Origin: Candidatus Acidiferrales bacterium
GTDB taxonomy: Bacteria > Acidobacteriota > Terriglobia > Acidiferrales > UBA7541
Length of the DNA: 64,000 bases
Direction: 5' to 3'
NCBI GenBank assembly: GCA_035307985.1
Contig: DATGHM010000019.1
Coordinates: forward strand, 16,076-80,075
Part shown: piece by piece, positions 4,223 to 16,449 of the stretch
Layout: each line of letters begins with the position of its first letter
Numbering within the stretch: the first letter of the stretch is position 1
Notes under the pieces: generated by a model
The model's input: only the letters and a program-made list of their open reading frames with translations
Database searches by the model: none
What the model was told of the DNA's origin: nothing
Made by a program: the position numbers and the translations under genes

Positions 4223-5434
4223 TCACGCAACCACCTGCTGTCGCACGGGAACCGCAAGGCACCGCTGATACAGCCGCTCGCATTCGTCGAGCGGCATGTC
4301 CCAGGAAAGCTGCTGCGCCGCCTCCGCACAGCCCCTGCGGCATTGCTCGGCGAACTCCGTGTCATCCAGGATGCGGCCAAGCGCTCGCGCAATTTGAGTT
4401 CGATCCAGCGGCACGATCAGCCCGGCGCGCTCCAGAAACAGCGCGACGCCGCAACGGTCGGTGACGATCACCGGCGTGCCGCAGGCCGCCGACTCCGCCG
4501 CGGTGTTTCCAAAATTCTCGTTCTCCGACGGCAGAACGAAAACGTCCGCGTCGCGATACGCTTGCCATTTTTCCCCTGCGAAGAGCGGACCGGGGAAAAT
4601 GACTTGTTCCGAAACGCCGAGCGACTGCGCAAGCGATTTCAAGGAAGCGATGTAACGATCTTCTTCGGCAGGCCCCGCAATCGCGAGGATGGAGCCGCGT
4701 CCGTTCGGGCTCGTCGCTCTCCAGCCTGCAAAAGCCTGAATCAGCAGATCGGGCCGCTTTTTGGAAACAACGCGGCCGAGAAAAAGAATCAGTTTCGCTT
4801 CCGCGGGCACGTTCCAATGGTCGCGGAATTCTCCGCGTGTGGGCGCAATTTCAGGAGTCTCGATTCCGTTCCGGCGAATTTCGATGCGGCTCGCGTCCAC
4901 GCCTGCTTCCACCAGCTCCCGACGTTCCTGCTCGGACGTGGCGATTACGAATCGAGCCCCGGCCACCAGGCGCTTGCCGAACAGCCCGCGATGCAATTTC
5001 TTCAGCGCGATGTTGCGGACGATGGGACGGTACATGCCCATGGGCTCGACGACGTAGGGGATCCCGTTGCGACGGCAGAATTGGCCGGCTGCCGGGCCGA
5101 GCAAATCGTACAAACCGTAAACGTGAACCAGGTCGAAGCGGCCGACGGATACCCCGCAAAATCGTACCACATGCCGGTTCACCGTGAGGGCGCGATAACG
5201 CGCCAGCGTGGGAACGTAAATCGTCTCCACGCCGGGCTCCGCGTATCGCCAGCCCCATTCGCACGCCTCGAACACTCCCTTGGAATTGTGGGCGCGGATT
5301 CCCAGATCGGCCGTCAGGATCGTCACCCGGTGGCCGCGCCGCGCGAGCCCGCGCGCGATAGCTCGCACCTTGAAAACGGTGCCGCCGCGTTCTTCGAACG
5401 GAAAGTAGGACTGGACTGTTTTCAGGATGCGCAT
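4223..5434 (-). CDS. glycosyltransferase family 4 (GT-B fold)
   Basis: 403-aa ORF with N-terminal GGTVFKVRAIARGLARRGHRVTILT and C-terminal LPSENENFGNTAAESAACGTPVIV (E-x7-E-like motif). Confidence 0.85.
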   Translation of the reverse strand: MRILKTVQSYFPFEERGGTVFKVRAIARGLARRGHRVTILTADLGIRAHNSKGVFEACEWGWRYAEPGVETIYVPTLARYRALTVNRHVVRFCGVSVGRFDLVHVYGLYDLLGPAAGQFCRRNGIPYVVEPMGMYRPIVRNIALKKLHRGLFGKRLVAGARFVIATSEQERRELVEAGVDASRIEIRRNGIETPEIAPTRGEFRDHWNVPAEAKLILFLGRVVSKKRPDLLIQAFAGWRATSPNGRGSILAIAGPAEEDRYIASLKSLAQSLGVSEQVIFPGPLFAGEKWQAYRDADVFVLPSENENFGNTAAESAACGTPVIVTDRCGVALFLERAGLIVPLDRTQIARALGRILDDTEFAEQCRRGCAEAAQQLSWDMPLDECERLYQRCLAVPVRQQVVA

Positions 5435-5635
5435 TCGCAGTGGGATCGCGCGACGGAAAAACAGGCCTCTCTCTTCGAATCGCGCGCTGGGAGTGCCTTC
5501 ATCGAGAGAAGCAGAGGAAGGATACTACCGATTTCATTCCGGGGCCAGCGCTGCCGGCGCGCCACCGATTTGAAAATTCGGCGCCGGCGTGGGAAGATTT
5601 TTCCGTGCGCATTTGAGGAGATCGCGCGGAAAAGC

Positions 5636-6064
5636 ATGGATTCCCATCCACCGAACAAGAAGCGCACTCTGATCGTCGTCGCGCTGTCTCTTATTTTCGT
5701 TATCGCGCTGATAGTCGCGTTCGATTCGCTGACGGGATGGAGCGCCCCGTCGTCGGCGCGGAAAATGAAGAATCCGGTTCCGGCTACAGAGTCGGCCATC
5801 GACGATGGCATGTTCAACTACTCGAAGCACTGCAAAAGCTGCCACGGCGTAAATGGCGACGGAAACGGCGACCGCGCCAGCCAGCTTTCTGCGGAGCCGT
5901 CGGATTTTACAGACGCGCGCGAGATGAGCCGCGTGACCGATGGCGAGCTGTTCTGGAAAATCACGCACGGCCACCGTCCCATGCCCGCATTCCAAAACAA
6001 GTTGACCGATGCGGAGCGCTGGGAAGTCGTCGACTACATTCGTACGTTTGCCAAAAAGCCCTAG
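5636..6064 (+). CDS. membrane-anchored monohaem cytochrome c
   Basis: Last 142 aa of track ORF 4343..6064, whose upstream part is antisense to the GT4 gene. ATG at 5636, TM helix TLIVVALSLIFVIALIVAF, haem motif CKSCH, distal RPMPAF. Confidence 0.8.
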   Translation: MDSHPPNKKRTLIVVALSLIFVIALIVAFDSLTGWSAPSSARKMKNPVPATESAIDDGMFNYSKHCKSCHGVNGDGNGDRASQLSAEPSDFTDAREMSRVTDGELFWKITHGHRPMPAFQNKLTDAERWEVVDYIRTFAKKP

Positions 6065-6175
6065 CCAAGCGGGCTGGCGCCGCACCCTCTCTCGCGCGAA
6101 TCCCCGAAAATGAGCCGCCTAATTTTCGCGCCTTTCTCGGGGCCGCGGGCGCGAGCATTTTAGACGGGCCGCGCT

Positions 6176-6634
6176 CTAATGCACCTTTGCCAACACGTCC
6201 GCCACTTCCTTGATGTCCGGCACCGTCGGAATATCGTAATTCTTGAACCAGGCCACCTTTCCCGAGCTGTCGATAATCCCGATCGCGCGCCCCGTGATTC
6301 CCTTATCCGCGAGATACACTCCGAATTTTTCTCCAACCGCCCCGCGCGGCTGAAAATCGGCAAGCAGCGGATAGTGGATCCCCATTTTTTCCGCGAACGC
6401 CTTGTGCGACCATGCGCTGTCGACGCTGATCCCCAGAACCTGCGCGTTCAGTTGCTCGAATCGCCTCATGTCGTTGACCAGGCAGGCGTGCTCGTTCGTG
6501 CAAACGGGACTCCAGTCCAGCGGGTAGAAGACGAGGACAACATTCTTCCCTTTGTAATCGGAGAGCTTCACTTCCTTCTGGTTCTGATCCTTCAGCGTGA
6601 ATTCGGGAGCCGGCGCTCCAACTGAAATGGCCAT
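6176..6634 (-). CDS. peroxiredoxin (AhpC/TSA/Bcp-type)
   Basis: MAISVGAPAPEFTLKDQ...VLVFYPLDWSPVCTNE. The internal ATG at 6634 is preceded by AGGAGG; the track ORF start at 6709 lacks an RBS. Confidence 0.85.
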   Translation of the reverse strand: MAISVGAPAPEFTLKDQNQKEVKLSDYKGKNVVLVFYPLDWSPVCTNEHACLVNDMRRFEQLNAQVLGISVDSAWSHKAFAEKMGIHYPLLADFQPRGAVGEKFGVYLADKGITGRAIGIIDSSGKVAWFKNYDIPTVPDIKEVADVLAKVH

Positions 6635-6881
6635 TCTGGATTCCTCCTGTGATTGCGTATCGAATTGCGACGTCTGGCGCGTGAACTCGGCATAAAACGC
6701 GAGCCGCAATCCATCATAGCCGAACGGCGCGCGGTCACGGAAGCTGCGATTCTGCTTGCACGTCGCAGCGCTGGTGTTTGTACAATCCGCTTGCCCGGCC
6801 GACGGGAGTGAGAGACTTTCGAATCTGCTCCCTTTTCGAATCTGCTAGGATACAAATAGGAAGCCGGAGCCGGAGAGAGAA

Positions 6882-7547
6882 TTGTCGATCGCACAACGCA
6901 CTCGAAACGGCGCGCTCGGAATGACCGCCGCAAAGCTTTCCTGCGAAGCCGCGTATCCGGGCATCGAATTTTCGCCGGGCAGCCGCGGTTTGCTTGCGTG
7001 GCTGAAGGACCGGCCGCCGGAGTGCGTTCACCTGAAGCGCAACGCGCTGTGGGTCGCCACGCTGGTCCCGGACACGTTGTATGTGCGAGGGAAACGCTCG
7101 CCGACGCGCGACTCATTGCGCCCGGAAGTCTCGCTCTGCCGGGACTGCTTCGTCGGGACCGTGGAAGGCGAATTTGCGGCGTACCCGGGAAACGTGGTGG
7201 CGTTCGAGCCGGACCCCGAAGTCTTCTCGCAATATTTTTTCGTTGGCGCTCCGGATTTCGAGCGGGCCGGGCTGCAGCCGGAAGTTGCGCGCGCCATCGA
7301 GCGTCGCTTGCGGCAGCGCGGCGAGACGTGCTCGGTCTGCGATCGAAGCGCAACATGGCTGTGGCTCTCGCGCGAGCAGGTGGCCGGCCTGGATGAGACG
7401 CAACGAATCGGCGAAGCGCCCGGCGAATGGTTTTGCGCCGCGCACGGCGCGCAGACACTGTGCCGCGCGTTTGCCGGAATTCCGGAAGCGAATGTTTTCT
7501 ACATGAATCTTCCGTACGGGGAAGCGGGCGCCTATGTCTGGATCTAA
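6882..7547 (+). CDS. hypothetical Cys-rich protein
   Basis: 221-aa ORF (TTG start, GGAGAGAGA upstream) with protein-like composition and the motifs CRDCF, CSVCDRS and FCAAHG. The overlapping 338-aa minus ORF is Arg-rich junk. Confidence 0.5.
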   Translation: MSIAQRTRNGALGMTAAKLSCEAAYPGIEFSPGSRGLLAWLKDRPPECVHLKRNALWVATLVPDTLYVRGKRSPTRDSLRPEVSLCRDCFVGTVEGEFAAYPGNVVAFEPDPEVFSQYFFVGAPDFERAGLQPEVARAIERRLRQRGETCSVCDRSATWLWLSREQVAGLDETQRIGEAPGEWFCAAHGAQTLCRAFAGIPEANVFYMNLPYGEAGAYVWI

Positions 7548-7588
7548 GCGATCGGCTCTCCGGCAATCCGGTTCTCACGGCGCTATCC

Positions 7589-7665
7589 GTCATCCTGAGC
7601 GAAGTCACGCGCCTTTCGCATTTCCCGCGCGCAACGCGGACGTGGGACGCAGTCGAAGGATCGCT
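7589..7665. repeat. GTCATCCTGAGCGAAG...CAGTCGAAGGATC type intergenic element
   Basis: The sequence gtcatcctgagcgaagtcacgcg...gcagtcgaaggatcgc lies just after the 6882..7547 stop. It shares the GTCATYCYG terminus with the element at 54962..55098. Confidence 0.3.
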
Positions 7666-7718
7666 CTTAGTTCTCTGCCGCGCATTGTGGTTCTTTCAGT
7701 TGCCGCCCTTTTGCCTGG

Positions 7719-7976
7719 ATGCGACCGATGACGGTGCAACTCCAGGAAGTGCTGGAGAAATATCTGGCGGCCAGCGGCGGCTACGACCAAGAAGTTGCCA
7801 TCTCGGCACTCGGATTCTCGCGCGAGGAAGTGGAAGACGTCTTCAGCGCCTTCGACGAGGACTACCACATCGGCCGCTTCTTCCATTTCCGCCAGGCCGA
7901 CGGCGAAAGCTACGCCATCGACGGCTTCCCCCAAACCCACGTTACCATCGACCCCGACATCCAATCCATCCTCTGA
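7719..7976 (+). CDS. hypothetical small acidic protein
   Basis: 85-aa ORF with protein-like composition, followed by a clean terminator. Confidence 0.45.
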   Translation: MRPMTVQLQEVLEKYLAASGGYDQEVAISALGFSREEVEDVFSAFDEDYHIGRFFHFRQADGESYAIDGFPQTHVTIDPDIQSIL

Positions 7977-8040
7977 GGCAGTGGCTAGCGGCGAGTGGCG
8001 AGCATCCGTGATTCGTGACCCTGGACTCGTGATTTGCGTG

Positions 8041-8068
8041 GCACAGCCGCCTCGGCTGTGCGCTTTTT
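8041..8068 (+). terminator. rho-independent terminator
   Basis: GCACAGCCG-cct-CGGCTGTGC (9-bp perfect stem) followed by GCTTTTT. Confidence 0.6.
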
Positions 8069-8115
8069 CCGAATTGTGATCAGGCTATCGATAAGCCTCC
8101 TTGCGTGAAACCCCT

Positions 8116-8350
8116 GGAAAGTGTATCGAGAAGTTTTTTGTCATGTGACTGACTTGGTTGGAGTTAAGCTCATTTTTTTCTCAACACGTGTATCGAGAAG
8201 TTGCGCGGGATGACGATCCCCGCCCCGACCCTGCTCCGCTCGGGACGAACATCCTGCCGGATGCTCGAAAGTGTATCGATCAATTTTGCCAGTTTTGTTG
8301 AGGGCGTTGGATTTACGGCATTTTTTGTTCGACACGTGTATCGATTAATC
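8116..8350. repeat. array of four GTGTATCGA boxes in two ~85-bp units
   Basis: Boxes at 8121, 8188, 8271 and 8336. Each unit reads GAAAGTGTATCGA...T-run...ACACGTGTATCGA. In-unit box spacing is 67 and 65 bp and the unit offset is 150 bp. A related TATCGATA palindrome sits at 8086-8093. Confidence 0.6.
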
Positions 8351-8409
8351 TCGCATCCGTCGCTCGCGGCCGGCGTGCTCCGCGTCTGCTCGTCCGTCTG
8401 CTTCGCGTT

Positions 8410-8621
8410 GTCGGTTTCAGCGCGCATAGAAACGAGCAACGCTAGCACGGAATGGGCGCGGGGCGCGAGATTACGAAAATACCTAGGGCGATAGAGACAT
8501 TTGTCTCTGGACGAAAGTCACTGTGGACGGTGCGACCATTTCAAGGGCTCATTCGCAGGACGCTGGTCGTCAGGTCGGCGGTTTCAGGGCGTATAAAAAC
8601 GGCGCGCGTTAGCACGAGAAT
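8410..8621. repeat. pair of ~45-nt direct repeats (GGTTTCAG...TAGCACG)
   Basis: 8410-8453 gtcggtttcagcgcgcatagaaacgagcaacgctagcacggaat versus 8574-8621 gtcggcggtttcagggcgtataaaaacggcgcgcgttagcacgagaat. Confidence 0.45.
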
Positions 8622-8772
8622 TAACTAAATTGGTGGATTCAAAATCCATGCAGTAGTACTACAACCGAGCGAGTGTCCTACAAAAAGACAGCTTTTCGAC
8701 GTCGATATGCCAAAAGTTGCTGTTGAGGGTCGGGGAAGCTATAATCCGCCATCCCGTGTGCCCGGAGTCCTA

Positions 8773-11115
8773 ATGGTTCCCGGTCTTGCTGGCACGATCA
8801 TCGAGTCCGACACGAACCCTGTACGGTTCGAGGATTTCTGCACGGAGTTGTTCAGCAGCGTAGAGGGCGCGCCGATTCTGCCGACGTCGCTAACGCACGA
8901 CCGCGGGCGCGACGGCAGGAGTACCGCTCGGAGCCGAGGCACCCACGCCGTCGTGCTTTGCGCCACGTTGACCAAGGAGCTCCAGCCGAAATTCCATTCG
9001 GATCTTGAAAGGGTTACGGCTACGTCGGACCCCGACCGTCTCATTTACTGTTGCTCCCAAAGGCTCACGGAGGATGCGACAGATGAACTCTCGCTAGAGG
9101 TAAAACGACACTTGTCGGCGACGTGCAGCACGCTGGTCATTGGATCAATACAGCTCTCGAATCTTGCGGGCAAGTATCCGGATATTTTCGCTAAGTTCTA
9201 CCATGCAGAAATCCGAATGATAGAAGCTGCCGTTTCCGCTTTGGAGGCGCCCGTCGACTCCTCGGATTGCAAGGGACTGCGTCTCGCGGTAATCGCTTTC
9301 GGCTCAAGCGACGCGGCCGCACTTCGCGAGCGCCTGTCGCAGCTGATCGTTCTACAGAGCTGCAAACTTCTCCGAGGCGCGACTACTTCCGGCGTTGCCG
9401 CCCAGATTTCCACTGATCTGCGCCTGCCACGAAATCTTAATCTGGACCGTGTTTCCACTGTGCTCCGCGGCCTACAGGGCGACGGACTAGTGCTTCTTGA
9501 GGCAGGCCAATGGAAAGTAACACCGGATGGTGACAAGAAGTTGGACGAGCTGGCTCCAGAGGCCGCCCGAGAGTTGCTCGCGGGGCGAACTGTCATTCGT
9601 CAGCGATTGGAGCAGCTGATCGGGACGCGATTGACCGATCAGCAATACGAGATCATCTGGTCCACCCTGCTCGATTTCCTGAGTGAGCTGTTTCATTCAA
9701 ATGGGCTGGACACGATTAGGGCCGTGAACAGTCTCCTAGATCCGACCGCCGAGGGGCCGGACGGTTGCAGCGCCCTTCATGGTCTGCTGTCAAGAGGTGC
9801 GCAGCGGATTCGGGCGATAGCTAGCGGCGTCGAGCTTGGAGAAATGCTCGGGCAGGCGGTCCTCGACGTTTTTACCGAGAGGTCGGGGCCTGCGTTCGAG
9901 TGGCTGGCGCGGGTCTGTGAGCGATTCGTGTCCTTGTGTGCGCTTGGGCTTGAGTCGAGCTCCGCCGAGGAGCTACGGCGGGTGGTGCAGCGGCATCACG
10001 TCGTTCTGGACTCGCACGTAATTCTGACCTTGCTCTGCGAGAGCGAGCCCGATTACCTCGGCACGCGGTCGCTCATCGCTCGCTGGCGGAGGGCGGGGGG
10101 GAAAATACTCCTGTCGAGACCCGTGCTTCAGGAGGTGGCACACCACGCCTGGATCGCCGAATCCGAGTTCGCTGAGACAGAATTCTTGCTGGGGAAACTC
10201 CAAAGGGAGGAACTGCGGCGGTACGTGGAAAATGCTTTTGCTCGCGTTTTCCACTTTCATTGTTCGAAGGACCCGAAAAATCGCGACAAGTGGCGGATGT
10301 ATATAGGGCAGTATCGCGGGCGGTCACCCAACGACTATTCGAATCTCTTGCCGTTGCTCCAGTCGGAGCTCGGTGGCGAGCTTTTGCCGGACAGAGTGGA
10401 CCCTCAGCTTGAGGACGAAATTTCGGATTTTCTTTTTGGGTTACGCGCGGAGCAACAGGGGGTAACGGTCCAAGAGCTAGATCGAGCGGATGTTGGCAAG
10501 GCTTCCACAGACGCGAAGTTGCTCGCCAGTATTGCAGCCGGGAACGAAACGTACAGGCAAGCTGGGAATGACGCTACAATCGTGCTGCTATCATCGTCGG
10601 CGCGCCTCCGTCGGGTGCACAACCGCTTCCGCCAGAAGCTGGGGCCCCGCACGATATTGACATTGGGCACCCTATCGTACTTGCTGTCGATGATTCCCGA
10701 CGCACAGTTGGGACCGGGTGCCCTTCGTGGCGCTCTCTTCGACTTCGGCGAAACCGCGCACCTCCAAGATACGGAGCGTCTTGCGCTGCGGGTTATCCGT
10801 GGTTCGGACAATATCGATCTCCCGTGGGCGAGAAGAGGACTGCTCGAAAGGCAGCTCGACGAGGAGCTGCACAAAGAGGCCAAGAGGCGAGATATTAGCG
10901 TTAAGGCGTTCCGGGAAGAGTTCAAAGCTGCGCGACCATCGGCGCACGCTGAGAGGGTCATCGTTGAAGCAGTGAAGGCTTTGGCGCTTTCGGGTCGAAG
11001 CGAGGAGGAACTGGTGAAAGCGCGGCATCAGATCAAGGAACTTGAGGAAAGTGTGGAGTCTCTTCGAGCTGCCGTTCGTGCTGCACGAGTTCAAAAACCT
11101 CGCGGTCGTAAGTAA
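8773..11115 (+). CDS. orphan multidomain protein: degenerate Mrr-like N-domain + winged helix + split PIN-like domain + coiled coil (family not recognised)
   Basis: Track ORF 8707..11115 (802 aa). I prefer the ATG at 8773 because GGAG lies 5 nt upstream and there is no SD before 8707. Lower GC and rarer codons than the neighbours. Motifs are given in the findings. Confidence 0.8.
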   Translation: MVPGLAGTIIESDTNPVRFEDFCTELFSSVEGAPILPTSLTHDRGRDGRSTARSRGTHAVVLCATLTKELQPKFHSDLERVTATSDPDRLIYCCSQRLTEDATDELSLEVKRHLSATCSTLVIGSIQLSNLAGKYPDIFAKFYHAEIRMIEAAVSALEAPVDSSDCKGLRLAVIAFGSSDAAALRERLSQLIVLQSCKLLRGATTSGVAAQISTDLRLPRNLNLDRVSTVLRGLQGDGLVLLEAGQWKVTPDGDKKLDELAPEAARELLAGRTVIRQRLEQLIGTRLTDQQYEIIWSTLLDFLSELFHSNGLDTIRAVNSLLDPTAEGPDGCSALHGLLSRGAQRIRAIASGVELGEMLGQAVLDVFTERSGPAFEWLARVCERFVSLCALGLESSSAEELRRVVQRHHVVLDSHVILTLLCESEPDYLGTRSLIARWRRAGGKILLSRPVLQEVAHHAWIAESEFAETEFLLGKLQREELRRYVENAFARVFHFHCSKDPKNRDKWRMYIGQYRGRSPNDYSNLLPLLQSELGGELLPDRVDPQLEDEISDFLFGLRAEQQGVTVQELDRADVGKASTDAKLLASIAAGNETYRQAGNDATIVLLSSSARLRRVHNRFRQKLGPRTILTLGTLSYLLSMIPDAQLGPGALRGALFDFGETAHLQDTERLALRVIRGSDNIDLPWARRGLLERQLDEELHKEAKRRDISVKAFREEFKAARPSAHAERVIVEAVKALALSGRSEEELVKARHQIKELEESVESLRAAVRAARVQKPRGRK

Positions 11116-11172
11116 CAAGCTACCGCAAACACCTCAGCAAGCATCGCGGCTACCCCCCAGCGCTACAGGTCT

Positions 11173-11930
11173 TTCGCGGGGCTAAAGCCCCGCGCTTCCA
11201 CCCCATGCGAACGGCTGCCGGGCTGAAGCCCGGCGCTACGTTTAAACCTTTAAACCCCTACTTGACGGCGAGGCTTCAGCTGCGGGCGGCGGCTTTTTCG
11301 CCGGGCTAAAAAGCGCCGCGCTTCCACGGAATGCGAACGGCTGCCGGGCTGAAGCCCCCGGCGCTACATCTAAACCTTTAAACCGCGTTTGACGGCGCCC
11401 CTGCACTCGGCACCTGGGGGCAATTCAGAGCCGGCGGGCACAGCGTGCTGTGCCCCTACCCAGAGGAAGGCATAGGACGGCGGACTACTTCAATGCCGCT
11501 GAGGAGTGCAATCGCGATGAAAGCGAATCGTGGGCGGCGGTTTCAGGGGCGGCGGTGCGTTGGAGGCGGGCGGCGGGCGCTAAGAACTAAGAAGACGGTG
11601 CCGGGCTGAAGCCCGGCGCTACGTTTAAACCTTGGAACCCCTACTTGACGGCGAGGCTTCAGCTGCGGGCGGCGGCTTTTTCGCGGGGCTAAAAAGCCCC
11701 GCGCTTCCACCGAATGCGAACGGCTGCCGGGCTGAAGACCCCGGCGCTACATTTAAACCTTTAAACCGCGTTTGACGGCGCCCCTACACTCGGCACCTGG
11801 GGGTAATTCAGAGCCGGCGGGCACAGCATGCTGTGCCCCTACCCAGAGGAAGCGTAGGACGGCGGACTATTTCACTGCCATGGAGGAGCGTTGCAGGCGA
11901 GACGAAAGCGAATCGTGCTCGGCGCGAATC
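11173..11930. repeat. tandem duplication (two ~316-bp copies offset by 384 bp) built of GC-hairpin modules, running into the pckG 3' end
   Basis: 11217-11532 aligns with 11601-11917. Modules are cgcggggctaaagccccgcg-cttccac-...-gccgggctgaagcccggc-gctacgtttaaacc. A 20-nt perfect palindrome gggcacagcatgctgtgccc is also present. Confidence 0.8.
11485..11538 (-). pseudogene. relic of a pckG C-terminal coding end
   Basis: The minus strand reads ..AAHDSLSSRLHSSAALK* against the real pckG end ..AEHDSLSSRLQRSSMAVK*. Frame and stop are retained and one codon is deleted. Confidence 0.6.
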
Positions 11931-13630
11931 GCTGATGGCAAGCGGTTGCCGAACTTGGCGAGGAATTCGCCGGTGGCGCGGGTTTCCTCGACCCAATCGG
12001 CGGGATCGACGCGAAGGAGCTCGTCGAGGGCGTCGCGCCCAATCGGCAGGCCGTCGAGCGTGAGCGATTCGGGAGTGGGAACGAAGCCGATAGGCGTTTC
12101 GGCGGCGCCGGCGCGGCCTTCGATGCGGTCAAGGATCCATTTAAGGACGCGCACATTTTCGCCGTAGCCGGGCCAGAGATATTTGCCGTTCGCGCCTTTG
12201 CGGAACCAGTTCACGTGAAAAATTTTCGGCTGGCGCTTGATTTTCGGACCCATCTCGAGCCAGTGCGCGAAATAGTCGGCCATGTTGTAGCCGCAGAACG
12301 GGAGCATGGCCATGGGGTCGCGCCGCGTGACGCCGACCGTGCCGGTGGCCGCGGCGGTGGTTTCCGAAGCCATGGTGGCCCCGACGAAAACTCCGTGCTG
12401 CCAGTCGCGCGACTGGTAAACGAGAGGCGCAAGCCTTCCACGGCGTCCTCCGAAAATAATCGCGGAGATGGGAACGCCGGCCGGATCGTCCCAGTGCGGG
12501 GAAATGGATGGAGAGTGGGATGCGCGGACGGTGTAGCGCGCGTTGGGATGCGCGGCGGGACCCGAATCGGGGGTCCAGCGCTCGCCCTTCCAGTTGATCA
12601 GGCCATCGTGCGGCGGGCCGTTGATGCCTTCCCACCAGGGCTCGCGCTCAGCCGTCATGGCGGTGTTGGTGAAGATGGAATCGTGATGGAGCGCGGCGCG
12701 GACGTTGGGATTCGTAGTGGCGTTGGTGCCGGGAGCGACGCCGAAAAATCCGGCTTCCGGATTCACGGCGCGGAGCGTGCCGTCGCCGGCGACGTGCATC
12801 CAGGCGATGTCGTCGCCAACGGTGAAGACGCGGTAACCCCGATCGGCAAGGGCGGAAACCATCATGGCGAGATTCGTCTTGCCGCAGGCGCTGGGAAACG
12901 CGGCGGCCATGTAGGTGACTTTGCCCGAGGGATCTTCGAGGCCGAGGATGAGCATGTGCTCGGCCATCCAGCCTTCGCGGCGCGCCATGGAACTGGCGAT
13001 GCGCAGCGCGAAACACTTTTTGCCCAGCAGCGCGTTGCCGCCATAGCCCGAGCCCACGCTCCAGATCAGATTTTCCTCGGGAAAATGGAGGATGAAGCGG
13101 CGGCCGGGATCGAGGTCGCCGAGGGAATGCAGGCCGGGAACGAAATCGGCGGACTTGCCGAGACGGTCGAGCGCGATCTTGCCCATGCGCGACATGATGC
13201 GCATGCTGGCTACAACGTACGGGCTGTCGGTGATCTCGACGCCGATCTTGCTGTAGGGCGAAGCGGCCGGGCCGAGAATGTAGGGCACGACGTACATCGT
13301 GCGGCCCTTCATGGCGCCGTCGAAGAGCGGGCGGACTTTGGCCTTGGCGTCTTCGGGAGACATCCAGTTGTTGGTGGGGCCGGCGTCGTCTTTCGCGCGC
13401 GAGCAGATGAAGGTGACGTTTTCGGTGCGGGCTACGTCGTTCGGATTGCTGCGATGAAGGTAGCAGCGGGGATATGTGGTTTCGTTGAGGGCGATGTAGG
13501 ACCCGTTGCGAAGCATTTCCTCGGTGAGGCGGGCGTTCTCAGCGTCGGAGCCGTCGCACCAGTGGATTTTGCCGGGCTTCGTCAGTTGCGCGGATTCCTC
13601 AACCCACTTTTCGAGCGGCGTCGACACCAA
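11867..13630 (-). CDS. pckG: phosphoenolpyruvate carboxykinase (GTP)
   Basis: 587-aa ORF, recognisable over its full length as GTP-PEPCK (..YPRCYLHRSNPNDVARTE..GPTNNWM..AFPSACGKTNLAMM..). Confidence 0.95.
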   Translation of the reverse strand: MVSTPLEKWVEESAQLTKPGKIHWCDGSDAENARLTEEMLRNGSYIALNETTYPRCYLHRSNPNDVARTENVTFICSRAKDDAGPTNNWMSPEDAKAKVRPLFDGAMKGRTMYVVPYILGPAASPYSKIGVEITDSPYVVASMRIMSRMGKIALDRLGKSADFVPGLHSLGDLDPGRRFILHFPEENLIWSVGSGYGGNALLGKKCFALRIASSMARREGWMAEHMLILGLEDPSGKVTYMAAAFPSACGKTNLAMMVSALADRGYRVFTVGDDIAWMHVAGDGTLRAVNPEAGFFGVAPGTNATTNPNVRAALHHDSIFTNTAMTAEREPWWEGINGPPHDGLINWKGERWTPDSGPAAHPNARYTVRASHSPSISPHWDDPAGVPISAIIFGGRRGRLAPLVYQSRDWQHGVFVGATMASETTAAATGTVGVTRRDPMAMLPFCGYNMADYFAHWLEMGPKIKRQPKIFHVNWFRKGANGKYLWPGYGENVRVLKWILDRIEGRAGAAETPIGFVPTPESLTLDGLPIGRDALDELLRVDPADWVEETRATGEFLAKFGNRLPSAIRAEHDSLSSRLQRSSMAVK

Positions 13631-14025: not shown

Positions 14026-16449
14026 CTATTCCTCGCGCAGGGCTTGCATGGGATCGACGCGAGCGGCTCGATGCGCTGGAACGTAGCAGGCCAGGAGCGC
14101 GGAAAACATCAACAGAGCGGCGACAGAACTGAACGCCGCGACGTCCATGGTGCCGACGTCATAGAAGAGGGAGTGCATGGCTCGTCCGACAAGGTAAGAA
14201 CCGCCGAGGCCCAGCGCAAGCCCAATCAGCGCCAGGATCATTCCTTCGCGCAGGATCAGACCCACGACGCGGCCAGCGCTCGCGCCCAAAGCCATGCGCA
14301 ACCCAATCTCGTGAGTTCGCTGGGCCACGGCGAAGGACATGACGCCGTAGATTCCGAGCGCCGCGAGCAGCAGCGCGATTCCCGCAAAGCCTCCAAAGAG
14401 AAATGCAGTAAAGCGGTCGCCGGCCATGGATTCATCCATGATTTGATCCATGGTCTTGACGTCGGCGAGGGGCAAGTTCGGGTCGAGCGACTGAACGATG
14501 TCGGCGATGCCTTTGCTGAGGGCGGCGGGATCGCCTGCGGCGCGCACTGCGATGGCGGCTTGCGGCCAGGGACTCTGCCAGAACGGCACATCGATTTCGG
14601 GGAAATCGTTTTTCGGGCCGCCGTTGCGAACGTTGTGATAGACGCCCACGATTTGCCACGAGATGTAGGGACCTAGGTTCGTGACGCCGGGGATGAGCTG
14701 CTCGACTTGAATGCGGTGCGAGAGCGCGTCCCCGGCGGGAAAGAATTTTTTCGCGAACTCTTCGTTGACGACGGCGACCGGAACACTGCCTGCGATGTCC
14801 TGCTCGTTCAACGGGCGTCCGCGGTCGATACGGATGCCGAACGTGCGGTAATAATCCGGCGTCACCATGTTGAAGCCGGCGCCGGGACGCTGCGAGGGAT
14901 CATTCACGGGCTTTCCTTCGATGACGAACGGCATGCCGAAGTTCACGCCCTGGAGCGGCATACCCTCGGACGCGGAGACCGACGAAACACCCGGGAGGGC
15001 CTGGACTCTTTCGAGAAGCTGGCGATAGAAGGCGGTGATTTGCTTGGGGTCGGTGAGGCGGCCGCTCGGCACCGGCAGAGAGAACGTGAGCAGATGATCG
15101 CTGCGGAAGCCGAGATCGACGTGAGCCACGTTCCACAAGCTGTGAATGGCGAGGCCGCCTCCGGCGAGCAAACTGAGCGCCAGCGCGAATTCGGCGACGA
15201 CGAGGGTGCGGCGCAAACCGTGGCGGCCGGCACTGAGCGCGGAGCGGCCGCCCTCTTTCAAGACCTCGTTCAGGTTCATGCGCGCCGCCTGCCAGGCCGG
15301 GGCGCAACCGAACAGGACGCCAGCGAGCAAACTTGCGGCGACAGTGAAGAGCAAGACGGGAACGTTCAAGCGGATGTCTGCTTCGGTCGGAAGGGTGAAG
15401 GGCGGCATCATCGCGATGATGACTTTCAGCAGCAGCCAAGCCAGGCCGATGCCGACCACGCATCCGGCGGCAGCCAGCGCAACACTTTCCGCCAGAAACT
15501 GGCCAAACAGCCGTTGGCGCGAGGCGCCGAGGGAGGCTCGCACGGCGACTTCCTTCTGGCGCGTGGTGGCGCGCGCGAGCAGAAGATTCGCGACGTTCGC
15601 GCAGGCGATGAGAAGGACGAAACCGACGGCGCCCATGAGCAGCCAGAGACCGCGGATGACGTCGCGGTCGAGAAAATCGTTCTTGAGCGGCTCGACGCTT
15701 GCGCCCCAGCCTTTGTCCGATCTGGGATAGACCTCGGCGAGGTGGCGCGTGACCGCGTCCATATCGGCGTTCGCTTGCGCGAGGGTTACGCCGGGCTTGA
15801 GGCGGCCCATAACGAGCAGCCAATGAAAGTCCTGATTGATCTGGTCGGGCTGGAACGCCAGCGGGACATTCAAATCGCTCTGCCCGCGGTCAGCGGGACC
15901 GGGCGCGAGCACGCCGACAATTGTGTACGGCTCGCCGTTCATTTGAACTTGCCGGCCGATGATGCCGCGGTCCGCGCCGAAGCGGCTCTTCCACAGCTTG
16001 TTCGTCAGGACGGCTTCGTGGTCCTTCCCGACCTGGCCTTCGTCGGGCAGGAAATCGCGGCCAAGGAGAAAGCGGTACCCGATCATGGAGAGGAAGCCGG
16101 GCGTGGCAGTCTGCGCGCGCACCTGCTCGGGGCGGTTCGAGGTCGCGAGATTGATGCTCATGCCGCTCCAGGCGCACAAGTGCTGGAAAGCGGTGCTCTC
16201 GCGCTGCCAGTCGAGGAAATTACCGGCGGCGGTGACGTTGCGATTGCCCTGGATCTTCGACCAGACCATCACCAACTGCTCGGGATGAGGGTAGGGCAGA
16301 GGCGCAAGCAGCGTGGCGTAGACGACGCTGAAGATGGCGGTATTCGCGGCGATGCCAAGGGCAAGCGCGAGAACAGCGACGGAGGCGAATCCGGGATTCT
16401 TCAGCAGCAGCCGGAAGCCGAAGCGGAGGTCCCGCAAGAGATTGTTCAC
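14026..16449 (-). CDS. ADOP-family duplicated FtsX/MacB-type ABC transporter permease
   Basis: 807-aa ORF with the N-terminus [41 protein letters not shown] typical of acidobacterial duplicated orphan permeases, and two FtsX-like TM bundles. Confidence 0.9.

Follow-up and report, generated by a model that had tools for sequence, protein, structure and literature searches.

A solitary acidobacterial gene of an unnamed family: five-part architecture of a candidate PIN-effector nuclease

Contig DATGHM010000019.1 of a Candidatus Acidiferrales bacterium (assembly GCA_035307985.1) contains, within the 64,000-nucleotide stretch analysed here (positions 16,076 to 80,075 of the forward strand, hereafter the window), a large plus-strand gene that stands by itself between two repeat-filled non-coding regions. 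An earlier reading of this DNA, made from the letters alone and referred to below as the sequence-only reading, described the product as an orphan in which a degenerate, Mrr-like and inactive nuclease domain was joined to a winged helix, a split PIN-like domain and a coiled coil, and suggested that such a protein might be a single-gene anti-phage or addiction module. The question raised by this locus is therefore what kind of protein the gene encodes, and whether a role in genetic conflict would be compatible with its structure, its relatives and its surroundings.

We show that the protein has a conserved single-chain architecture of five parts. Specifically, from the N- to C-terminus it incorporates; 1) a restriction-endonuclease-like domain; 2) a winged helix-turn-helix (wHTH); 3) a helical region; 4) a PIN domain carrying an insertion; and, 5) a C-terminal helix. 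The gene is solitary, its distribution is patchy and the chromosomal slot it occupies is variable. We tentatively propose, at a little less than an even chance, that it encodes a self-contained and horizontally mobile PIN-effector nuclease of an unnamed family, with a toxin- or defence-like role.

The gene product and its family

An intact open reading frame (ORF) of 802 codons runs without a frameshift from 8707 to 11115 on the plus strand, and every peptide motif previously quoted from it was found in its translation. Residue numbers given here follow the 802-amino acid frame that opens at nucleotide 8707, the favoured product being 780 amino acids from M23. On sequence evidence translation most likely starts at M23 (nucleotide 8773), because an equivalent methionine opens all 30 aligned homologues, a GGAG lies 5 nucleotides before the ATG at 8773, with nothing resembling a Shine-Dalgarno sequence ahead of 8707, and the exact 780-amino acid product has already been called on three independent metagenome contigs. 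The size had been given as 780-802 residues; the shorter product is favoured and the start at 8707 is not. A scan for the Walker A motif [AG]x4GK[ST] found none in the protein, in agreement with the earlier claim, and no Pfam NTPase family matched it.

The orphan status given to the protein does not hold. Word-indexed searching retrieved 49 homologues of 30-76% identity, mostly of 760-800 amino acids, and when 1.84 billion representatives, clustered at 50% identity, were searched exhaustively with a profile, 929 clusters matched at an E-value of 1e-3 or less and 328 at 1e-30 or less. The family is scattered through bacteria of the soil, its members coming mostly from Acidobacteriota and sporadically from other phyla. 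The non-fragment members among the best 150 clusters are nearly all one end-to-end stretch of ~760-800 amino acids, and alignments of 31 close and 104 diverse homologues are co-linear over the full length. Conservation counts given below come from an alignment of these 104 diverse sequences, down to 22% identity, and member scans against Pfam and PADLOC cover 63 diverse family members. Only five residues are invariant in all 104 sequences, W318, G333, D435, E476 and D602, and there is strong purifying selection over the whole length of the sequence. What is defined is thus an unnamed family with a fixed architecture of ~780 amino acids, for which there is no Pfam, NCBIfam or PADLOC model; NCBIfam gave no match to the window protein. 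Searches of PDB sequences with the single sequence, a full-length profile and an N-domain profile yielded nothing usable, the sole hint being eS19, a winged-helix protein (E 0.47).

At 90% identity or more, the window protein shares a cluster with a fragment whose annotation reads Candidatus Acidoferrales. In a scan of GTDB, at least 19 species among 185,579 representatives carry the gene, a lower bound because just three peptide patterns were used; most are Acidobacteriota, with one each from Chloroflexi, Dormibacterota and Janthinobacterium and one metagenome-assembled genome of Polyangiales. Exact-protein look-ups of pckG, AhpC and an N-domain fragment from Methylibium returned no record.

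Domains of the protein

The assignment of residues 430-662 as a PIN-like domain is well supported by sequence and by modelling. When residues 395-700 were modelled alone, AlphaFold2 (AF2) gave a predicted local distance difference test (pLDDT) score of 85.5 and a predicted template modelling (pTM) score of 0.81, with strands at ~430-434, 466-469, 557-558, 624-628 and 650-651. Against the PDB, Foldseek placed a VapC of M. tuberculosis first for this model (5x3t chain B, probability 0.98, TM to target 0.59), followed by the PIN domain of Rrp44 (0.91) and a further VapC (7vwo_A, 0.89), and model and matches together show the three-layer alpha/beta/alpha arrangement and the parallel five-stranded sheet of the PIN fold. 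The full-length model gave winged-helix matches only in the same search, the PIN fold being visible with the model of residues 395-700. Among the scanned members, Pfam PIN (PF01850) and PIN_3 (PF13470), the families of VapC, match 8 (E below 0.01) and 6 respectively, and a single one, P0180, exceeds the PF01850 gathering score of 23.6 bits, at 24.7 bits; the match of the window protein itself covers residues 432-498 at 12.8 bits (E 0.19), below that score.

The acidic sites of PIN domains comprise an aspartate after strand S1, a VapC-type glutamate on the helix after S2 and an aspartate at the N-terminus of helix H4 (Matelska et al., 2017; PMC5499597). These positions are matched by the three invariant acidic residues of the family, namely D435 after strand S1, E476 at the beginning of helix 471-494, which follows strand 466-469, and D602 within the RDGxLLASIA helix, and the same three features are shared with VapC. 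Position 447 is also acidic, with Glu in 100 sequences and Asp in 4. The PIN core is interrupted by helices forming an insertion of the ~100 residues that the sequence-only reading had described, and this insertion bears conserved N509, R513, W529 and D543. The split PIN domain read from the letters is thus borne out by the invariant acidic residues, the VapC top match and the Pfam matches of members.

Residues 203-272 are well supported by the model as a winged helix. The AF2 elements are three helices followed by a beta-hairpin wing (helices 203-222, 227-238 and 246-258, strands 262-265 and 268-271), Foldseek matched PadR, LmrR and MarR proteins with a probability of 1.0 (TM to target 0.6-0.67, root mean square deviation 2-4 Å), and the Pfam families HVO_A0261_N and HTH_45 match three members each, so that the winged helix previously claimed is upheld. 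While these residues superpose with PadR, MarR and LmrR, the domain is here an internal part of a large putative nuclease and not a small dimeric repressor, and neither a PadR-type ligand pocket nor a dimer helix was identified in the window protein. The all-helical region that follows was assigned no known fold; it holds the invariant W318 and G333 and the best-kept block of the family, ERSGPAFEWL..CERFV.LC.LGLE. At the other end of the chain, the terminal 30-residue helix (766-795, nucleotides 11002-11091; low pLDDT) is probably a coiled coil, as had been proposed. The last 80 amino acids contain 21 Lys or Arg and 13 Asp or Glu, and coiled-coil families match weakly in the window protein and in scattered members.

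The N-terminal domain is weakly supported, from sequence, as a conserved variant of the restriction-endonuclease-like fold. AF2 orders its elements alpha-beta-beta-beta-alpha-beta-alpha-beta, a sequence of elements compatible with the alpha-beta-beta-beta-alpha-beta core of PD-(D/E)xK nucleases. The best profile match is to the restriction-endonuclease part of a PADLOC model for Argonaute-associated proteins, Aga_REase-TIR-PNTD1-PNTD2 (Aga_REase below); the window protein reaches E 3e-5, and 8 members match, the best at 2e-6. Pfam Mrr_cat (PF04471) matches residues 37-128 to its profile positions 5-97 at E 0.17 and 12.4 bits (cut-off 21), and 3 members match it, the best at E 1.3e-5. A third model, PDC-S73, matches at E 2.7e-3 here and in 5 members (best 1.9e-6). 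Fold matches of the full model in BFVD, to Rpb5-N (probability 0.92-0.97), FokI-like (0.99) and T7 endonuclease I-like (0.66) proteins, all at E above 0.1, appear in an output without residue ranges, and we read them as belonging to this domain. A profile search with the N-domain by itself gave eight short fragments and no new architectures.

The likeness to Mrr_cat lies in an FE motif on helix 1 and in the D-x-G-x-D acidic motif (D65 in 103, G67 in 92 and D69 in 102 of the 104 sequences). The difference lies in strand 3. The lysine that the sequence-only reading found to be missing is absent from the family as a whole, there being no (D/E/Q)-x-K in strand 3 and no lysine or acidic residue at positions 85-87 in any of the sequences; these positions hold C (76), A or L, then C, A, S, T or V, then S (57) or T (40). 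The family has instead K95 and D99 (102-103 of 104; K95-x3-D99) on the helix that follows. Compared with E. coli Mrr the domain order is reversed, the N-domain standing ahead of the winged helix. Since there is no (E/Q)xK and the score falls below threshold, the domain is not Mrr_cat as defined. Aligned by hhalign with an E. coli-type Mrr profile, the N-domain reached a probability of 1.3%, using a narrow alignment (28 sequences of 70-79% identity), and the comparison with the single E. coli Mrr sequence was not significant. An Mrr-like N-domain finds weak backing in the domain profiles and none in the Mrr profile comparison, the alignment used there being too low in diversity to decide the matter.

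The word degenerate, on the other hand, is set aside because E42, T60, D65, D69, K95 and D99 are strongly conserved (99-103 of 104; E122 is near-invariant as well), and inactivity of the domain does not follow either, given the nearly invariant K95-x3-D99. An alternative is that the N-domain is itself a catalytic DNA nuclease with a relocated lysine and acidic residue (K95/D99), acting in the manner of type IV restriction, with the wHTH and PIN domains serving for binding or as a second activity. Relocation of the lysine is known in some PD-(D/E)xK families. The residues in question, E42, D65, D69, K95 and D99, are as well kept as an active site, and the nearest model, Aga_REase, is of effector type. 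However, the strand-3 (D/E)xK is lacking family-wide, the D65-D69 loop is modelled with a pLDDT below 50, the comparison with the narrow Mrr profile stays at 1.3%, no PDB sequence relative was found by profile, and the acidic residues that are most strictly kept sit in the PIN domain. We consider a catalytic N-domain unlikely.

Table 1. Coordinates of the features of the locus in the window, with the basis of each assignment.
Feature	Residues	Position	Strand	Basis
Coding sequence	780 amino acids and stop	8773..11115	+	ORF, homologue starts, recorded product, GGAG at 8764-8767
Restriction-endonuclease-like (PD-(D/E)xK-like) domain	23-180	8773..9246	+	Weak profile matches, AF2 element order
Winged helix-turn-helix	203-272	9313..9522	+	AF2, Foldseek, Pfam in members
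All-helical middle region	273-429	9523..9993	+	AF2 and alignments
PIN-like nuclease domain	430-662	9994..10692	+	AF2, Foldseek, Pfam in members
Helical insertion in PIN, ~100 amino acids	495-592	10189..10482	+	AF2, conservation
Invariant acidic codons	D435; E476; D602	10009-10011; 10132-10134; 10510-10512	+	Codons checked
Helical C-terminal region	663-802	10693..11112	+	AF2; long charged helix at end
Upstream non-coding region		8012..8772	.	Hairpin 8041-8061, two ~148-bp tandem units, ~45-nucleotide repeated motif
Downstream non-coding region		11116..11866	.	Between convergent gene ends; ~330-bp direct repeat

Genomic setting and possible role

The gene has no operon partner in an all-against-all comparison of flanking ORFs at 23 loci, as the sequence-only reading held for the window. 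At 23-24 loci no conserved neighbour was found among ORFs of at least 80 amino acids within 7 kb or of at least 30 amino acids within 1.5 kb, and conserved flanking DNA was not found across the homologue loci. The candidate partners shared by several of the 23 loci, ABC transporters and histidine kinases, are generic, vary in position and were rejected. The five annotated homologue neighbourhoods all differ, and one of the five (L001) lies beside a type I restriction-modification system and a recombinase; its neighbours are a serine recombinase, the restriction-modification genes and a helix-turn-helix protein. At L002 a class II ribonucleotide reductase is directly upstream (4326-7430), and L004 has aminotransferases and AhpC. 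Transposases of the IS3 family of insertion sequences (IS; HTH_Tnp_1 or HTH_21, with rve) lie directly downstream at L007 (7129-10545) and L015 (12489-13925), and IS3 insertion cuts the protein to 714 amino acids at L007 and L008.

A ribonucleotide reductase is also found upstream at L010 (~7140-9950), the sole context common to two loci; there it appears as several separate ORF pieces, perhaps through frameshifts or errors of assembly. At L006, another of the five annotated neighbourhoods, and in this single case, a divergent lexA (LexA_DNA_bind and Peptidase_S24, 7191-7811) lies 190 bp upstream of the homologue P0025.

In the window the gene is a lone plus-strand gene, as had been noted. The unit upstream is closed by a hairpin at 8041-8061, and pckG (11867-13630, minus strand) converges on the gene from downstream across ~750 bp of non-coding DNA. 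The slot next to pckG was compared at 80 metagenomic loci with the closest pckG relatives, which are fairly distant, and none of the 80 has a homologue of the gene. L036, whose pckG is 76% identical, keeps the backbone o19159-o18119-MacB-pckG ... hyp221-AhpC, and its slot, which measures 5.2 kb from pckG to hyp221, codes for a peptide deformylase, an alpha/beta-hydrolase-TPR protein and a 601-amino acid hypothetical protein; the slot holds a 719-amino acid hypothetical protein at L035 and a HEAT-repeat protein at L040. Because other genes fill the slot and no homologue occurs at the 80 loci, the slot is variable and the gene accessory here, being neither syntenic nor universal in these fairly distant relatives, which is the outcome of the presence/absence check that the sequence-only reading had called for.

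Composition sets the gene apart in part. Its GC content of 0.585 compares with 0.60-0.65 in neighbours, a drop too mild to make a strong case for the lower-GC islet that had been described, whereas its codon usage is clearly atypical: CTA, TTA, ATA and AGA together have a frequency of 28 per 1000 codons, compared with 0-12 per 1000 for 12 further genes of the window, and the GC content of third codon positions is 0.657 against 0.72-0.80 in the same 12.

One way to explain the gene without any role in genetic conflict is that it encodes an accessory housekeeping enzyme, for example a stress-induced nuclease of RNA processing or DNA repair. Most neighbourhoods consist of ordinary metabolic or transport genes and give no sign of a defence island, the divergent lexA at L006 would fit such a role, and the whole protein is under strong purifying selection. 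A gene of this kind is nevertheless hard to reconcile with its presence in as few as the 19 or more GTDB species found, its absence from the syntenic slot in relatives, its atypical codon usage, and the IS elements or recombinase that adjoin it at three loci, and we regard the housekeeping explanation as rather improbable.

The reading that we prefer, of a mobile PIN-effector nuclease, can be put in mechanistic terms. The PIN domain would be the metal-dependent catalytic effector, acting through D435, E476 and D602 with E447 and residue 437; the wHTH and the N-domain would bind nucleic acid and keep the PIN site gated in cis, as VapB does for VapC; and the C-terminal helix would drive oligomerisation. 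The role would be of the conflict type, that of a toxin-like, abortive-infection or defence nuclease whose cleavage of RNA or DNA is set off by a trigger. A more specific form of this idea is that the protein is a new and complete immune or abortive-infection system of soil bacteria in one chain, in which the restriction-endonuclease-fold variant, its Lys/Asp pair displaced to a helix, and the wHTH sense foreign or damaged nucleic acid and unlock an antitoxin-free PIN domain in cis; we hold this form to be doubtful.

Several observations weigh against the reading as an active effector of genetic conflict. On the genomic side, defence genes were not enriched among 130 neighbours at 17 GTDB loci, most of which are ABC transporters, methyltransferases, hydrolases and two-component proteins; the PADLOC matches among them (mad2/3/8, PD-T4-6, RtcR, a kinase model) seem to reflect generic domains. 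Collections of 72,556 plasmids and 50,697 phage records yielded no copy of the gene. The source names of homologues are limited to 'hypothetical protein' or 'predicted nucleic acid-binding protein', with no named relative, the window protein lies under every Pfam threshold, and the Foldseek E-values are all above 0.1 (0.14-0.4 for the PIN model). Within the PIN domain, the family has no conserved acidic residue after strand S4: strand 624-628 is followed by S or T at 629, S at 630 and S or A at 631, and the nearest column that is often acidic, 638 (E in 29, D in 17, C in 13, A in 10, G in 8, among others), is His in the window protein. Our assumption is that E447 or D437 may substitute for this residue. 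Position 437 is Asp in 96 sequences and His in 7, and the window copy has His; at position 601, where 89 sequences have Arg, it has Thr.

The last two substitutions, the second of which stands beside the putatively catalytic D602, might point to decay or loss of activity in the window copy. Yet its ORF is of full length, D435, E476 and D602 are all kept, and His at 437 is not peculiar to it. Since H437 and T601 are both found in the intact P0001, a 76% identical homologue, they are a trait of the lineage, and an inactive copy seems very improbable.

For the anti-phage or addiction module of the sequence-only reading, then, a solitary gene, patchy occurrence and a variable slot speak in favour, and the lack of a defence-island signal and of plasmid or phage copies in the collections searched speaks against. 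Comparison with known systems places the protein outside each of them; it most resembles a VapC-type PIN toxin joined to DNA-binding and regulatory modules of its own. VapC is a protein of ~130-140 amino acids with a separate VapB antitoxin gene, whereas here the PIN domain lies inside a 780-amino acid chain with no partner gene and, unlike VapC, contains the ~100-residue helical insertion and lacks the acidic residue after strand 4; as there is no antitoxin gene, the window protein is not a VapBC member. PDC-S73, a single-gene candidate in PADLOC with a model of 752 positions, is similar in length, and its first ~130 positions match the N-domain, but its remaining ~600 positions have no match to the window protein. 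PADLOC-DB v2 gave no full-length system match, and since its only matches, Aga_REase and PDC-S73, are partial ones to the N-domain, the protein is not a member of a PADLOC system. Sensors of the STAND or Avs type have a Walker A NTPase module, which the window protein lacks. The protein is made of known kinds of domain in an undescribed combination, and the architecture was not described in the literature found for PDC-S73 or for defence proteins that combine Mrr and PIN.

If the preferred reading of a PIN effector is right, a VapC-type PIN toxin would here be controlled inside one polypeptide and not by a separate antitoxin, and Acidobacteriota, the immune systems of which have hardly been explored, would gain a further defence or toxin candidate. 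The list of residues that can be mutated (D435, E476 and D602; D65, D69, K95 and D99) makes a clean experimental test possible. At present the product has the status of a well-described hypothetical protein, and many such candidate families exist.

Flanking DNA and repeats

The two flanks of the gene, of ~760 bp upstream and ~750 bp downstream, are filled, as described before, with local repeats; these do not occur elsewhere in the 64 kb window, and Rfam gave nothing above gathering score in either. The gene's own promoter presumably lies in the upstream region; no match to the sigma-70 consensus was found there. Two ~148-bp tandem units occupy 8107-8350, and each contains two copies of the 9-mer GTGTATCGA (8121, 8188, 8271 and 8336), the second of each pair being enclosed by the palindrome ACACGTGT. 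These four copies of the 9-mer are its only ones in 64 kb, where 0.16 would be expected. The GTGTATCGA repeats may serve as operators or stem from the duplication of a promoter region; repeats of this type are not conserved ahead of homologues at other loci.

These repeats bear on another possible explanation, namely that the gene is a fused, self-regulating addiction gene, the wHTH of which represses its own promoter while a VapC-like RNase is held in cis, the whole persisting selfishly. Four potential operators upstream, VapC as the best fold match, and a solitary gene in variable contexts adjoining IS elements speak for such a gene. The repeats are nevertheless not kept at other loci, no plasmid copies were found, addiction normally needs a separate labile antitoxin, of which there is none, and the protein exceeds VapC five- to sixfold in size and has extra conserved domains for which addiction offers no explanation. 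Selfish addiction is accordingly an explanation to which we give little credence.

Hairpins with the 7-nucleotide stem GCACAGC...GCTGTGC bracket the gene, one upstream (8041-8061) and two downstream (11438-11453 and 11821-11836), and are the only three in 64 kb, where none are expected. The upstream one has a T-rich tail and is terminator-like. Downstream, a ~330-bp direct repeat (11211-11539 and 11595-11924) has copies of 92-95% identity, the second of which takes in the final ~58 nucleotides of pckG. Because this pckG-proximal copy overlaps the end of pckG, the segment 11487-11539 is a decayed duplicate of that end. Nested in the same region are hairpin-rich units of ~100 nucleotides (11172-11270, 11296-11397 and 11679-11780).

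The flanks also contain some minor features. A ~45-nucleotide motif (CGGTTTCAG..CATAGAAAC/TATAAAAAC..TAGCACG) occurs twice upstream, at ~8405-8455 and 8572-8622. The exact 14-mer CGGCGGTTTCAGGG flanks the gene as a direct repeat (8576-8589 and 11535-11548), its downstream copy lying right where the duplicated 3' fragment of pckG ends; it is found nowhere else in the window even at one mismatch, with 0.07 expected, and could be the scar of an insertion or rearrangement that delivered the gene. The three contigs with the identical gene all stop less than ~1 kb past its end, perhaps because assembly broke off at the repeats. A sub-threshold Rfam match to DUF3800-VII (11170-11262, minus strand; 22.5 bits, gathering score 36.2, E 0.1-0.6) coincides with a ~100-nucleotide hairpin unit and is probably due to chance, although the unit is both repeated and structured.

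Further upstream are plus-strand genes at 6882-7547 (221 amino acids) and 7727-7976 (82 amino acids), both called on contig L030 and without a Pfam match. The 221-amino acid protein is part of the backbone and not of an insert, because it is kept beside AhpC at L035 and L036 (50-58% identity). A GT4 glycosyltransferase gene (4223-5434, minus strand) matches Pfam GT4-conflict (PF20706, E 8e-14), probably through generic GT4 similarity, and sits in a polysaccharide-type cluster, to which an asparagine synthase and, as seen on the identical contig L030, also a carbamoyltransferase belong.

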